This document shows, piece after piece, positions 22,973 through 26,750 of a DNA stretch of 64,000 nucleotides. The translations under genes and the position numbers were made by a program. Source of the DNA: Escherichia coli (GTDB lineage Bacteria > Pseudomonadota > Gammaproteobacteria > Enterobacterales > Enterobacteriaceae); NCBI RefSeq assembly GCF_024700885.2, contig NZ_CP117014.1, one strand, 5' to 3'. Position 1 is the first letter of the stretch. Every line of letters begins with the position of its first letter. The notes below the pieces were generated by a model. That model was not told the DNA's origin. It searched no databases and was given only the letters and a program-made list of their open reading frames with translations.

Positions 22973-23365
22973 CTACCAGCTAGACAAACGAACAACATGT
23001 TTCACTTTTGCGATCCACTGTCCGCGATAACTATTGATTACGGCCTGTGCCAGCTTCAAATTGGCTTCAAAATCAGCCTTACTACCATCAGACTCCACCA
23101 GCATTCCTCCATCTATTTCTGGTAAACATAGATAATCCTGCTCAACCTGCAGCGGCATTGATGGCTCTCTGAATGGGGTTACTTGCTCTGCTTTCCAGCG
23201 AAATCTAACCCTTATCCCCCTGGTGGTCATTACTAGATAGCCTGTTATAGTGCTTTTATGGCCCACATCAGTACGCGTGGCATTGCATGACTCGATCTTA
23301 CAGTTAGCGATAGACCACTCCATATTGGTGGCCTGTTGAGTGCTTAATTTGGTAGTCCCGTACAT
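22973..23365 (-). CDS. hypothetical protein (pdcA position)
   Basis: 130-aa ORF, ATGA-type overlap with the upstream gene. Confidence 0.4.
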   Translation of the reverse strand: MYGTTKLSTQQATNMEWSIANCKIESCNATRTDVGHKSTITGYLVMTTRGIRVRFRWKAEQVTPFREPSMPLQVEQDYLCLPEIDGGMLVESDGSKADFEANLKLAQAVINSYRGQWIAKVKHVVRLSSW

Positions 23366-23940
23366 CAGAAAGCCTCCCAGTCAGTCGCGATAATATCCAC
23401 ACCAGTTGCAAACCAGTCTGTCTGCGCCTGTAAATCCCCATTCATCATTACCAGGCGAGGCATCACCATCACATCGCACCCTTCCACAATATCGAATGCC
23501 TCTTCCGGCAAGAATTCGAAGAGCTTTTCTTTGCTGCCAATACTGCCACGGAACATCGATATATAGCTCCCTTTGGGCCATGATGTCCGCCGGGCATCAA
23601 GCCCTTTCATCATCCAGTAAAAAGCCGAGGAAAAAGGGATATTCTTTTTGCCAATGATTACATTATTCGCTTCTGTGTATTTCAGGAACTTAACTAACCT
23701 TACCATTGACTCGGATAACGCAACGTATGGCTCATGATTGATTGCTGACACGCTTACACCGTGCAATCCAACGCTTACCACTGTCATATCGCCGCTCTGT
23801 GCGGTTTCGATATTGACGCCTTTGCGAACTAATGAGGCGTAAATTTCCTCTCGCTTTTGGGTCCAGCGTTCACGCTTCCCTATGAAGTCACTCAAAATGA
23901 GATCTTCTTCTGTATATGCGTTATCGTTCGCCATTAACAT
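23365..23940 (-). CDS. protein with C-terminal DUF2829-like domain (pdcB position)
   Basis: 191 aa; FSSAFYWMMKGLDARRTSWPKGSYI...DWFATGVDIIATDWEAF follows the DUF2829 pattern. Confidence 0.5.
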   Translation of the reverse strand: MLMANDNAYTEEDLILSDFIGKRERWTQKREEIYASLVRKGVNIETAQSGDMTVVSVGLHGVSVSAINHEPYVALSESMVRLVKFLKYTEANNVIIGKKNIPFSSAFYWMMKGLDARRTSWPKGSYISMFRGSIGSKEKLFEFLPEEAFDIVEGCDVMVMPRLVMMNGDLQAQTDWFATGVDIIATDWEAF

Positions 23941-24162: not shown

Positions 24163-24210
24163 CACAACGGAAACGGCGCTCACGCTAATTAAACGCCTTT
24201 TCCTGTTGTG
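24163..24210. repeat. hairpin H1
   Basis: CACAACGGAAACGGCG / CGCCTTTTCCTGTTGTG, 15-nt loop, one mismatch and one bulged T. Confidence 0.6.
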
Positions 24211-24392: not shown

Positions 24393-24468
24393 TGGTGGCC
24401 CCTACCGGACTTGAACCGGTGACCGTGCGATTATGAGTCGCCCGCTCTAACCACTGAGCTAAAGGGCC
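24393..24468 (-). tRNA. tRNA-Ile2/Met (anticodon CAT, ileX-like)
   Basis: Reverse complement GGCCCTTTAGCTCAGTGGTTAGAGC..GACTCATAATC..GGTTCAAGTCC..GGGGCCACCA folds as a cloverleaf and closely resembles E. coli ileX. Confidence 0.85.
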
Positions 24469-24606: not shown

Positions 24607-24785
24607 CACTTGCAGCCACCTTTTAAGACAAAACGCCATTGCTGTTAGGTTGCGGTGCCGGGCGCCTCCCGGTGACGTTAACCAGTTAACAATTAACGCC
24701 GGATCACTTATGGATTCTCGTTACGCCAGTAAAAAGACCACCTTTACTGTTTTAACTGTTCCGCGTGCGCTTAGCCGCATTCACC

Positions 24786-24895
24786 GCAATGGTAAGAGCA
24801 TTTGGCTGACTGGGCGGCGATGACGCCTGTACGCATTTGGTGATCCGGTTCTGCTTCCGGCATTCGCTTAATTAGCCAAATACCCTTAATGTTGC
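24786..24895. repeat. hairpin H2
   Basis: GCAATGGTAAGAGCATTTGGC / GCCAAATACCCTTAATGTTGC (21 positions, 16 Watson-Crick); ends 2 nt from the CCA end of tRNA-Ser. Confidence 0.5.
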
Positions 24896-24897
24896 AC

Positions 24898-24984
24898 TGG
24901 CGGAGAGTAATGGAATCGAACCATCATCGCTTGCGCAATGGGACGGTTTTCAAGACCGCTTGAGCACCATGCTCCCTACTCTCC
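24898..24984 (-). tRNA. tRNA-Ser (anticodon TGA)
   Basis: 87 nt; acceptor GGAGAGT/ACTCTCC, anticodon loop CTTGAAA, long variable arm (6 bp plus GCAA loop), T-loop TTCGATT, encoded CCA. Confidence 0.85.
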
Positions 24985-25114: not shown

Positions 25115-25214
25115 CACCACAATGTTGAGAACACTGGTTGTCACGCTGCAACGCAACATTTATTCGTAGATTGGGATATGACCCCGTTACGCCAGTGTTC
25201 TCAACGTTGTAGTG
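25115..25214. repeat. hairpin H3
   Basis: CACCACAATGTTGAGAACACTGG / CCAGTGTTCTCAACGTTGTAGTG: 23 positions, 21 Watson-Crick, 1 G-T, 1 mismatch; 54-nt loop. Confidence 0.65.
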
Positions 25215-25350: not shown

Positions 25351-25437
25351 CACAACGGTAAGAGCATTTATGGCTCGCATCGCGGGAAAAAGCCCACGGT
25401 AGAGAGTCGAACTCTACAAATGCTCTTACCTGTTGTG
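25351..25437 (-). ncRNA. hairpin H4: tRNA-like junction with a T-arm
   Basis: 19-bp basal stem CACAACGGTAAGAGCATTT / AAATGCTCTTACC(T)GTTGTG. On the minus strand it encloses GTAGAG-TTCGACT-CTCTAC (25399-25417, canonical T-loop) and CGTGGG-CTTTTT-CCCGCG. It starts 1 nt after the CCA of tRNA-Thr. Confidence 0.5.
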
Positions 25438-25438
25438 T

Positions 25439-25514
25439 TGGTGCCGGTTAACGGGATCGAACCGCTGACCATTCGCTTACAAAGCGACTGCTCTACCAAC
25501 TGAGCTAAACCGGC
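25439..25514 (-). tRNA. tRNA-Thr (anticodon TGT)
   Basis: 76 nt; acceptor GCCGGTT/AACCGGC, D-arm GCTCAGTTGGTAGAGC, anticodon loop TTTGTAA, T-loop TTCGATC, encoded CCA. Confidence 0.85.
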
Positions 25515-25518
25515 AATT

Positions 25519-25605
25519 TGGTGGGGAGTGATGGAGTCGAACCACCCGAGTCGCAATGACAGTAGATTTACAGTCTACCCCGCTACCCCTACGGACTAAC
25601 TCCCC
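25519..25605 (-). tRNA. tRNA-Tyr (anticodon GTA)
   Basis: 87 nt; acceptor GGGGAGT/ACTCCCC, anticodon arm GTAGA-CTGTAAA-TCTAC, long variable arm, T-loop TTCGACT, encoded CCA. Confidence 0.85.
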
Positions 25606-25610
25606 TAAAT

Positions 25611-25687
25611 TGGCGATGGTGGGTGGATTCGAACCACCTACCGAAAGCTTAGAAGGCTGCTGTTCTATCCTACTGAGCTACACCATC
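25611..25687 (-). tRNA. tRNA-Arg (anticodon TCT)
   Basis: 77 nt; acceptor GATGGTG/CACCATC, anticodon loop CTTCTAA, T-arm GGTGG-TTCGAAT-CCACC, encoded CCA; the anticodon stem has one mismatch. Confidence 0.8.
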
Positions 25688-25887
25688 ACTTGCCGGGTAC
25701 GTCTCCGGCGAGGGCTTCCACCTCCGTATGCTTTTCGGCGCACCGCGCCCTGGCTGCAATTCGGTAACAGGGGATGCACAACCCTGGCTTCCAGCGTGAT
25801 TAGCGCCTTCAGCATGACGGGATATACCCGTTACAAGAAGTTCTCCCAGGATGCCATTAAGCAATGGCTGTTACGCGGGAAGGACGC

Positions 25888-25964
25888 AACAGGTAAGGGC
25901 GCTGACCAGAAAGACCTGACCCTTCTCATTCATCTGGTTAATCACACCAGCGCCCTTGCCTGTT
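25888..25964. repeat. hairpin H5
   Basis: AACAGGTAAGGGCGCTG / CAGCGCCCTTGCC(T)GTT with inner stem ACCAGA/TCTGGT; same bulged T as H1 and H4. Confidence 0.6.
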
Positions 25965-26148
25965 ATGCCTCCCCGTTCCCTAATACACAGACGGGGACAC
26001 TCTGCGGTCGATTTTTTTGACGGGGGACGACTCATACCCCGTGGCGTCTGGCTTCTTAGGCCGCTACCATCATCAGATCATCGTTTGCATTTACTTTAAT
26101 GGTCAGTTTCTAAACCGCCGCAAAGTCGCTAACCATGACGAAAACCCT

Positions 26149-26172
26149 AAAAAAGCCCACCCGAAGATGGGC
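26149..26172 (-). terminator. rho-independent terminator (minus strand)
   Basis: Minus strand reads GCCCA-TCTTCGGG-TGGGC followed by TTTTTT. Confidence 0.55.
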
Positions 26173-26191
26173 AAATACGCTACATCTCACA

Positions 26192-26270
26192 CAAGAAAGA
26201 AGCCGACTGCCTGAGCTGGATTCACTTTCAAATGCCCGCTGAAAGGGATCACAAGTCGGCTTCTTTCTTG
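26192..26270. repeat. hairpin H6
   Basis: CAAGAAAGAAGCCGACT / AGTCGGCTTCTTTCTTG: 17-bp perfect stem, 45-nt loop with inner stem CTTTCA/TGAAAG. Confidence 0.7.
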
Positions 26271-26486: not shown

Positions 26487-26551
26487 CAACATTAAGGAGA
26501 CTCAGGGCAAAAGGTAACCGCCACAAAAATCCCTATGCCTCCTTAATGTTG
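26487..26551. repeat. hairpin H7
   Basis: CAACATTAAGGAG / CTCCTTAATGTTG: 13-bp perfect stem. Confidence 0.65.
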
Positions 26552-26559
26552 AAGATGTG

Positions 26560-26614
26560 CATTGATGATTAGATGCAGCATGTACCGTTACTCTCTGCCG
26601 GACCATCATCAATG
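26560..26614. repeat. hairpin H8
   Basis: CATTGATGAT / ATCATCAATG: 10-bp perfect stem, 35-nt loop. Confidence 0.55.
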
Positions 26615-26750
26615 AACACCTTAAAAAGACCTTCCGTGGCTCAACATGTATTGTCGTTTACTCCGCAAAGTGCTCTCTCTGAAACCACTTTCCGCACTAA
26701 ACCTGCTGAACTTTGGCCTGCACGGTGCCAAAGCGTGCTCTTGCATTACT

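Follow-up and report, generated by a model that had tools for sequence, protein, structure and literature searches.

A conserved T-arm-bearing RNA hairpin beside tRNA-Thr in the tRNA array of a P1/D6-like phage-plasmid

The tRNA cluster of a P1/D6-like phage-plasmid from Escherichia coli raises the question of what follows its tRNA-Thr gene: an 87-nt element, H4 (25351–25437, minus strand), which contains a hairpin resembling the T-arm of a tRNA. Positions refer to the window, that is, the whole 64-kb stretch of DNA that was analysed. The segment 24300–26100 is 89–98 per cent identical to phages D6, P7 and P1 and their relatives, and in P1 and P7 the H4 region is annotated as the leader of the C1-controlled ban operon, in the order promoter and operator, dicF-like region, tRNAs, small genes and ban. 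H4 is located in the tRNA-rich leader of such a ban-type operon. Five tRNAs were found in the region by ARAGORN, all on the minus strand. Three of them, tRNA-Arg(tct) (25611–25687), tRNA-Tyr(gta) (25519–25605) and tRNA-Thr(tgt) (25439–25514), were also recognized by the Rfam tRNA model; they are co-oriented with H4 and occupy the DNA immediately upstream of it (25439–25687). The other two are tRNA-Ser (24898–24984) and a Met/Ile2-type tRNA (CAT; 24393–24468). This tRNA region gains and loses tRNAs and contains chimeric and interrupted ones.

Read along the minus strand from 25437 to 25351, H4 opens with the 5' arm of a basal helix (25418–25437), composed of CACAAC, a bulged A (25431) and GGUAAGAGCAUUU. 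There follow a T-arm-like hairpin, GUAGAG-UUCGACU-CUCUAC (25399–25417, loop 25405–25411), a second hairpin, CGUGGG-CUUUUU-CCCGCG (25381–25398), an 11-nt linker, AUGCGAGCCAU (25370–25380), in which a 3-bp mini-hairpin AUG/CAU is possible, and the 3' arm of the basal helix, AAAUGCUCUUACC-GUUGUG (25351–25369). The parts are thus ordered as basal stem, T-arm, closed stem, linker and basal stem. The basal helix comprises 6 + 13 bp (19 bp) and one bulged A, and the 6-bp T-stem abuts the 6-bp second hairpin without a spacer, giving 12 bp in all. This agrees with the sequence-only reading, which had placed the element immediately 3' of tRNA-Thr (its 5' end is 1 nt past the CCA, on the same strand) and described the same sequence with a 19-bp basal helix; both were recovered when the minus strand was re-read, and the T-loop is, as had been claimed, identical to that of tRNA-Tyr, UUCGACU in both.

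Whether the T-arm forms is not obvious from H4 taken singly. The fold energy of H4 is −42.0 kcal/mol, compared with −18.7 ± 3.0 for dinucleotide shuffles (z = −7.8), and the minimum-energy fold lacks the T-arm, the GUUCG of which pairs with CGAGC of the linker. The three-way junction was calculated at −40.5 against the minimum of −42.0 kcal/mol, i.e. 1.5 kcal/mol worse, and the T-stem pairs reach an ensemble probability of about 4 per cent. On the energy model of this one sequence, the junction is a plausible alternative fold and nothing more. A scan of both strands of the 64-kb window for the pattern G-UUCRANN-C with a closing stem of at least 5 bp returned six canonical T-arms, where about 0.25 would be expected by chance; five belong to the tRNAs and the sixth, the sole non-tRNA T-arm of the window, to H4.

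Homologues of the tip of H4, which we call type A, are found in a range of temperate phages. Sensitive BLAST searches with the H4 region detected diverged copies in the Enterobacter phages CobraSix and vB_Ecl_MII_001, and pattern searches for the tip led to about 50 viral contigs. A second pattern search, in which the whole T-arm was left unconstrained, gave back the same loci; consequently, the T-arm is present in every homologue. The patterns fixed parts of the second hairpin and of the linker, where conservation is therefore no evidence and only the pattern-independent copies count: those of CobraSix, MII_001, a prophage of E. coli STEC306 and plasmid pCUPF12A. In pCUPF12A the linker is AUGUGCGCCAU, so that the linker appears to be less constrained than the pattern-biased alignment suggests. 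The carriers of type A are lambdoid, P22-like and P1-like phages, the lambdoid prophages being those of E. coli, Klebsiella, Enterobacter and Salmonella. Among 5,426 complete E. coli genomes, 58 carry type A, at 46 chromosomal and 17 plasmid places, and none of these copies is annotated; PGAP leaves H4 blank. A metagenome scan yielded six chance matches and no new type A variants. None of 4,227 Rfam families matched H4 in scans that covered its region, the 116-nt element, the P1 and CobraSix loci and 11 further loci, and 'hits' of miRNA-precursor families to it were dismissed, as a long hairpin alone accounts for them. A literature search covering RNAs of the P1 ban operon, the arm sequences and tRNA-like elements of the lambdoid late region found no description of the element. 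H4 is one of the copies of a structured RNA that is conserved among temperate enterobacterial phages and has hitherto gone unannotated.

The comparison of these copies settles the choice between the two predicted folds. For 21 distinct homologues RNAalifold gave a three-way junction with the basal helix, the T-arm and the second hairpin. In the 21-sequence alignment 96.4 per cent of the pair cells are paired, against 38–60 per cent when the partners were slid; eight pairs show compensatory double changes, and none of 500 shuffles reached the observed pairing values, these control statistics being pair counts that ignore phylogeny. The diversity of the type A alignment is modest (92 per cent mean identity) and most copies in it were retrieved by pattern. 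The T-stem is 100 per cent paired, with pair 23–39 occurring as UA, AU, CG or UG and pair 26–36 as AU, GC or GU; two of its six pairs lie wholly in columns free of the search pattern, and both covary. The second hairpin is likewise 100 per cent paired, and pair 43–57 varies as UG, UA or AU, some columns of this hairpin being fixed by the search patterns. The T-loop UUCGACU is the same in all copies retrieved by BLAST or with patterns that put no constraint on the T-arm. The sequence-only reading had described a three-way junction with a T-arm as its first arm and had made the conservation of this arm in related genomes one of its touchstones; the consensus structure, the covariation of the stems and the invariant loop uphold it on both counts. 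Judged from aligned sequences, the junction is thus to be preferred over the fold computed for H4 singly.

The same covariation bears on the idea that in H4 a tRNA gene, or an attachment site derived from a tRNA, is decaying inside a palindrome and has no function. A region with such a turnover of whole, chimeric and interrupted tRNAs is where remnants might be looked for, T-arm-like mini-hairpins vary among other tips of the same hairpin family (see below), and the T-arm GUAG(A)GUUCGACU resembles GTAGGTTCGACT of the P22 attP/thrW core (PMC8022706). However, the compensatory changes in two T-stem pairs and in the second hairpin, together with the invariant loop, argue for selection, and the element is conserved across unrelated phage groups and in the 58 E. 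coli genomes. Decay would account for the origin of the T-arm but not for the compensatory changes, and we regard it as very improbable.

The strand on which the structure acts can be deduced from its wobble pairs. Of the 714 pair cells, about 62 are G.U when read on the tRNA strand and about three would be G.U on the opposite strand, and the fold therefore belongs to a transcript of the tRNA strand; the dominance of G.U pairs makes the fold of the second hairpin specific for the sense strand. Coding potential was rejected on either strand. A frame starting at the ATG of the linker has 53 codons in the window and just 13 in most homologues, since the 3' flank differs, and the plus-strand frames overlap tRNA-Thr. 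Pfam gave nothing.

H4 does not stand alone in its cluster. Besides H4, repeat and pattern searches brought to light at least three complete hairpins whose ends are the same (family consensus CACAAC-A-GGUAAG...CUUACC-GUUGUG), all on the minus strand: a 100-nt hairpin with diverged arms and compensatory changes (25115–25214), an 83-nt hairpin without the bulge upstream of the tRNA cluster (25885–25967) and a 48-nt hairpin with a minimal tip (24163–24210). The basal helices of these paralogues measure 17–23 bp, compared with 19 bp and one bulge in H4. A solitary 3' arm, downstream of tRNA-Ser (24785–24804, minus strand), represents a half copy; its place is taken in P1 by an intact hairpin. No family hairpin was found elsewhere in the 64 kb. 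Pattern scans of IMG/VR gave about 130 family loci, in which the outer helix is constant and bears at least 12 unrelated tip sequences of 48–111 nt. Some of these loci belong to lambdoid or other temperate phages of Klebsiella, Salmonella and Enterobacter that have no other DNA in common with the window. In species-representative genomes the arm pattern occurs at one locus only, because P1-like plasmids and prophages are rare there.

The arms of the family behave as a structured RNA in their own right. In an arms-only alignment of 15 tip types 94.3 per cent of the cells are paired and nine pairs show double changes, including covariation at arm positions 14–20, which the search patterns had left free. 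Basal-helix pair 18–31 is U.G in 10 of the 15 tip types, and in all 12 tip types compared the better fold is that of the strand whose 5' arm contains the bulged A, not that of the complementary strand. The arm covariation and strand bias therefore indicate a strand-specific RNA structure or, less probably, a structure of single-stranded DNA. The T-arm is not what unites the family. In P1 and D6 another 87-nt tip (type B), with AGGGUUCGAAUCCCU on its 3' side, takes the place of that of H4, P7 and others have a 68-nt tip without a T-arm there, most members lack a T-arm altogether, and T-arm-like mini-hairpins appear and vanish among the other tips. The emphasis originally placed on the T-arm is thus justified for H4, where this arm is real, but it does not define the family, in which the same basal helix bears unrelated tips.

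The exchange of tips on a common helix could suggest that the inverted repeats serve as a joint for recombination at the DNA level, i.e. as blocks of homology for the exchange of modules such as tRNAs, small genes and sRNAs between temperate phages, the RNA fold being incidental. Homology between the window and other P1-like phages breaks at hairpin arms, as seen in comparisons with P1, P7, Ro157c2YLVW and 813R1, and the last of these keeps both arms with the H4 tip replaced. The same outer 13 bp recur in P1-like, lambdoid, P22-like and other phages sharing nothing else, and one tip can be found on different arms (types D and E). On the other hand, compensatory changes preserve the pairing in the tip and in the inner basal helix, the G.U pairs point to a strand-specific fold, both features being unexpected in a pure DNA homology block, and neither target-site duplications nor an associated recombinase were seen. 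We consider it improbable that exchange is the whole explanation; a role in exchange is compatible with a role as RNA and does not compete with it. Two related readings were rejected. A miniature inverted-repeat transposable element (MITE) does not fit flanks without target-site duplication, a different tip at each position and strand-specific pairing. An integron attC-like reading of CACAAC...GTTGTG finds no integrase, no target duplications and, again, G.U pairing specific for one strand.

The layout of H4 invites comparison with the bacterial Y RNAs of the YrlA group. In YrlA the order of parts is stem, T, acceptor-like stem-loop and D; the RNA is modified by TruB and, in Mycobacterium smegmatis, cleaved by RNase P, and a GNCGAAN0-1G motif near its 5' end is the putative contact of Ro60 (Chen et al. 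2014, PMC4201824). H4 resembles YrlA in several respects. In both, a long stem is built from the 5' and 3' ends, and at its tip a T stem-loop precedes a closed acceptor-like one, which occupies alignment columns 41–59 in H4. The T stem-loop, nearly invariant in YrlA, is G-UUCGACU-C without exception in H4 homologues, with its 6-bp stem 100 per cent paired. The size of H4 (87 nt) falls within that of YrlA (about 80–130 nt), and YrlA RNAs are also found in phages. The two differ in that the V arm and D stem-loop of YrlA are replaced in H4 by the 11-nt linker, which offers a mini-stem of at most 3 bp and no GG signature of a D-loop, hence no D stem-loop. They also differ in context: YrlA lies next to rsr, H4 within the tRNA/sRNA array of temperate enterobacterial phages.

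Tests of membership turned out negative. The sequence-only reading had proposed a search with Infernal models, and neither the Rfam model of YrlA (RF02553) nor that of Y_RNA matched H4 at E ≤ 10, whether the sequence searched was 3.5 kb or 116 nt long, or the CobraSix homologue at the same threshold; the short covariance-model searches spanned 116–481 nt. In the P1 locus the YrlA model scored at one place only, over the two true tRNAs, and reached 25.6 bits there, the gathering score being 69. The 5' arm of H4, CACAACAGGUAAGAGCAUUUG, contains no GNCGAAN0-1G motif. No TROVE/Ro60 gene was recognized by Pfam among eight selected ORFs within about 4 kb, and the annotated regions of P1, P7 and D6 contain no TROVE gene; most E. 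coli hosts are not known to have a Ro60 orthologue. H4 has a Y-RNA-like layout, yet it is not a member of the YrlA family: of the YrlA-type architecture first ascribed to it, the order of parts stands, and membership fails on the model, the motif, the D stem-loop and the Ro gene. That H4 is a bona fide YrlA or Y RNA tethering the Ro60 protein (Rsr) is scarcely credible, for all its long basal helix with a bulge and its YrlA-like succession of T-arm, closed stem and linker, when the YrlA model is silent on H4 and its homologues at E ≤ 10 the motif and the D stem-loop are absent, and no TROVE gene was seen among the ORFs examined within 4 kb. H4 is not a tRNA either: it is not among the five tRNAs of ARAGORN, and the Rfam tRNA model did not match it at E ≤ 10.

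The surroundings of the family hairpins are similar in different phages. In the window, as in seven further P1-like loci, type A lies 1 nt past the tRNA-Thr CCA, and in about 20 loci it lies 6–8 nt past an intrinsic terminator downstream of Q; this lambdoid site is behind the tR' terminator, downstream of the Q antiterminator and the late promoter. In Stx phages the same site is a niche of tRNA genes. Other copies of type A are preceded by a small hairpin, GCUCCACGAAACGGAGC, or by the last part of an STnc100-like module. Elsewhere in the family, one hairpin (locus L121) overlaps the first 3 nt of tRNA-Arg and another (L146) has a tRNA-like sequence directly 3' of it. A promoter-like site and terminators of its own accompany the array in the P22-like phage BUCT554 and the L040 group, where it is oriented antisense to the structural genes. 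Most hairpins are followed by a module, GGUGAAUGCG..., with GUGGUG/CACCAC as its closing stem. This structured, STnc100-like module comes after the half hairpin in the window (24651–24788, minus strand; RF02076, 39.1 bits, below the gathering score of 47), and modules of this kind lie behind family hairpins in other phages as well. The hairpin is not the 5' part of STnc100, a possibility that was rejected: the STnc100 of phage 933W has no family hairpin upstream, and hairpin and STnc100 are therefore separate modules, though they often travel together. Pfam analysis of the eight selected ORFs within about 4 kb, the largest included, identified Lpa, a Tad2-like domain, VRR-NUC and a coiled coil. 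The Tad2-like anti-defence gene lies downstream of H4 in the same orientation; an accessory, anti-defence neighbourhood is plausible on this account, and the gene proves nothing about H4. Overall, the family hairpins present themselves as spacers in non-coding arrays of tRNAs and structured RNAs, with expression predicted from lytic-phase promoters.

The reading that we favour, with a probability of roughly 0.45 and hence tentatively, is that H4 serves as a spacer RNA which mimics a tRNA, is co-transcribed with the tRNA/sRNA array and excised, and punctuates that array. The structure, conservation, strand and position of H4 are observed, and from them we infer the following processing steps and partners. 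H4 would be transcribed on the tRNA strand within a non-coding array of tRNAs and sRNA-like modules, which forms the leader of a ban-type operon in P1/D6-like phage-plasmids and a late-operon leader behind tR' in lambdoid phages. Its basal helix of about 20 bp with the bulged A is the scaffold placed at the joints between modules and would insulate them and punctuate the array, and the hairpin would be released from the polycistronic transcript along with its tRNA neighbours. RNase P would generate the 5' end of whichever tRNA or tRNA-like module comes next, and the 20-bp helix may be a target of RNase III or of further nucleases. In this way H4 could set the 3' end of tRNA-Thr, the last tRNA, which has no downstream tRNA to provide an RNase P site.

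Where tRNAs follow one another closely, RNase P separates them by cleavage at the 5' end of the downstream tRNA, and the enzyme also processes non-tRNA hairpin RNAs, including the C4 RNA of P1/P7 and 4.5S RNA. Helices of about 20 bp are standard substrates of E. coli RNase III, and phage and rRNA operons use such stems as punctuation; the two-turn helix (about 20 bp) typical of these substrates is matched in H4 by 19 bp and a bulge, the pairing being kept by covariation. The tip would mimic the acceptor/T half of a tRNA, T-stem and closed stem together making 12 bp, and the T-arm may turn the excised, nuclease-resistant RNA into a ligand or substrate of elbow-recognizing enzymes such as RNase P, TruB and TrmA. 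The 12-bp stack of the T-stem and hairpin 2 has the strand polarity of T plus acceptor, its far end is closed by a loop, as has been described for the T and 'AS' stem-loops of YrlA (PMC4201824), and H4 has no RCCA-like tail. Beyond this stack the polarity is opposite to that of a tRNA, and the minihelix analogy is therefore limited to the T-stem and the second hairpin with its loop-closed end. A T-arm is missing from most members of the family and is thus dispensable for a general role as spacer.

The invariant T-loop and the covarying stems would also suit a function in trans, in which an excised stable RNA uses its T-arm tip to titrate an elbow-recognizing protein of the host or its defences. 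Candidate targets are anti-phage nucleases or colicins directed at tRNAs, enzymes of tRNA modification or the ribosome, and the basal helix would be a mere stabilizing handle, as in Y RNAs. Two unrelated tips present a T-arm on the sense strand, type A on its 5' side and type B (P1, D6 and BUCT554; AGGGUUCGAAUCCCU) on its 3' side, and the elements are found in predicted lytic-phase units, beside phage tRNAs and upstream of the Tad2-like anti-defence gene. The layout parallels that of YrlA, which is TruB-modified and, in M. smegmatis, RNase P-cleaved (PMC4201824). Against this, the T-arm is missing in most family members, H4 has no equivalent of the D-loop for a true tRNA elbow, and the linker that could replace a D-loop is variable. 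Such titration fits the same data as the spacer role; on balance we think it unlikely. A bolder version, in which H4 and type B of P1 make up a new, Ro-independent class of phage tRNA-elbow mimics built on the common scaffold and acting in trans during lytic growth, seems to us doubtful. In that version the RNAs, made alongside the phage tRNAs, might be decoys or inhibitors of host factors recognizing the T-arm or elbow, such as tRNA-targeting defence nucleases or colicins or the enzymes of tRNA modification and processing, and the family would form a modular 'RNA display' array with exchangeable tips.

Either role would matter for the understanding of phage tRNA clusters, which are now seen as a counter to translation bias and to tRNA-targeting defences. 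The non-tRNA RNAs that accompany them are almost unstudied, and H4, neither a tRNA nor a Y RNA despite its true T-arm, is a concrete case supported by covariation. If it acts as the spacer that we favour, in cis, it would explain the release of the last tRNA of the cluster and of the adjacent sRNA-like modules; action in trans would give phage anti-defence an additional, RNA-based layer. The element is short and resides in genetically tractable phages, and the predictions are specific: a stable RNA of about 87 nt, pseudouridine or m5U in the loop, and ends that depend on RNase P or RNase III. Its type B sister in the model phage P1 is masked by the doubtful coding annotation 'plp'. The common hairpin scaffold also marks the points of exchange of a mosaic accessory region.

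Several known phage systems share features with H4. In the T4 tRNA cluster, stable non-tRNA RNAs (species 1 and 2; bands C and D) are processed from the tRNA operon; phage and sequence are unrelated to H4. The C4 antisense RNA of P1/P7 and the CI RNA of P4, from the same group of phages, have a closing stem with internal hairpins and are excised from longer transcripts by the tRNA-processing enzyme RNase P, as would apply to H4. Unlike these RNAs, H4 lies at a different locus, has no sequence similarity to them and no evident antisense target; the Rfam C4 model did not match at H4 or at the P1 locus. The PeSL (promoter-early stem-loop) cassettes of T4-type phages, which mediate the shuffling of modules, resemble the H4 hairpins as stem-loops bordering exchangeable accessory modules, but H4-type hairpins have no promoter and show strand-specific RNA pairing.

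Similar in form are the RNase III punctuation hairpins (T7 early region, lambda N leader, sib) and the stems of rRNA operons, which like H4 place a bulged helix of about 20 bp between units; the punctuation hairpins also resemble the H4 family in having several copies per operon. They differ from the H4 family, whose tips are large and, in types A and B, tRNA-like, and from H4 itself, a presumptive RNase III substrate, in that its outer helix is conserved in sequence across unrelated phages. The outer 13 bp are conserved in sequence beyond what RNase III would need, which hints at a sequence-specific partner or at homogenization by recombination.

The tRNA-Arg(tct) gene of the window (25611-25687, minus strand) has its acceptor, D and T arms in common with the P1-type tRNA-Asn(gtt) (GATGGTGTAGCTCAG...GGTGGTTCGAATCCACCCACCATCGCCA), which in other phages is found in the slot held here by tRNA-Arg(tct). 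Judged from their sequences, the two genes look like an anticodon-arm swap on a single scaffold. Other tRNA genes are interrupted or rearranged in the phage, plasmid and prophage loci that we compared with the window. In locus L014 (2236-2365, minus strand), an insert of approximately 75 nt replaces the anticodon arm of a tRNA-Thr, which the Rfam tRNA model recognizes with 44 bits over 130 nt. This gene is flanked by tRNA-Asn and by a family hairpin, i.e. one sharing the bulged basal helix of H4, the 87-nt hairpin RNA element that follows tRNA-Thr in the window. In pCUPF12A (L212, approximately 940-1440), an insert of approximately 440 nt splits one tRNA gene of the cluster after its anticodon arm; the PGAP annotation records a partial tRNA-Thr only. 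The insert contains an ORF with a CANCHRKVH-type motif at its end; by its sequence, the ORF looks like a putative HNH endonuclease, and it may be an intron-borne homing endonuclease. Finally, a chimeric tRNA in IMG/VR contig 2778261532_000009 (L078) begins as tRNA-Asn, of which it keeps the 5' two-thirds, and continues as tRNA-Thr, which supplies the T-arm and the 3' end; it probably arose by a deletion between the neighbouring tRNA-Asn and tRNA-Thr genes.

The T-arm of H4, GUAGAGUUCGACU (25399-25417), and the linker AUGCGAG (25370-25380) each resemble one half of the P22 attP/thrW core, ATGCGAAGGTCGTAGGTTCGACT (quoted in PMC8022706), although their order is rearranged. This likeness is a possible clue to an origin from tRNA-Thr(CGU). 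At approximately 30 loci (e.g. L211 2483-2499 and L139 1483-1499), copies with the H4-type tip (type A) in lambdoid prophages have immediately 5' of them a small hairpin, GCUCCACGAAACGGAGC, with a 5-bp stem and a 7-nt loop.

The type B hairpin, which carries the T-arm on its 3' side, overlaps protein annotations in two phages. In P1, the genes upl and plp (L001 3518-4087, plus strand in the locus) are annotated opposite to the operon strand. The plp gene shares bases with the type B hairpin and with the 3' end of trnT. In the window, the corresponding frame is disrupted at the differing hairpin tip, which makes the annotation of plp doubtful. A diverged type B hairpin with 85% identity to that of P1 is present in Enterobacter phage BUCT554, a P22-like podovirus (L186 1201-1288), where it overlaps with a CDS annotated as a 'hypothetical protein' on the antisense strand. 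Compared with P1, its basal helix has compensatory changes and its T-arm is identical.

Upstream of the array of tRNAs and hairpins lies a strong terminator-like hairpin, GCCCATCTTCGGGTGGGC followed by a T-run (26155-26172, minus strand), with three further long inverted repeats upstream of it (26192-26270, 26487-26551 and 26549-26625). The terminator-like hairpin falls within the stretch aligning to the P1 'dicF-like region', in which the Rfam DicF model gave no score. An STnc100-like structured module (24651-24788, minus strand), which scores 39.1 bits on Rfam RF02076 and thus stays below the gathering score of 47, follows a solitary hairpin arm. Lambdoid and P22-like phages have similar GGUGAAUGCG...CACCAC modules 3' of family hairpins.

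The TerB-like genes tciA and tciB, present in D6, P7 and P1, are missing from the window at 24609-24645, where the alignment with D6 (L003 2748-3376) has a gap of approximately 630 bp corresponding to the tciA/tciB site. A co-oriented ORF of 191 aa, 3' of the array (23365-23940, minus strand), carries a domain like that of Tad2 (Thoeris anti-defence 2), matching Pfam PF11195 over the cut-off (E = 9.5e-10, 39.3 bits).
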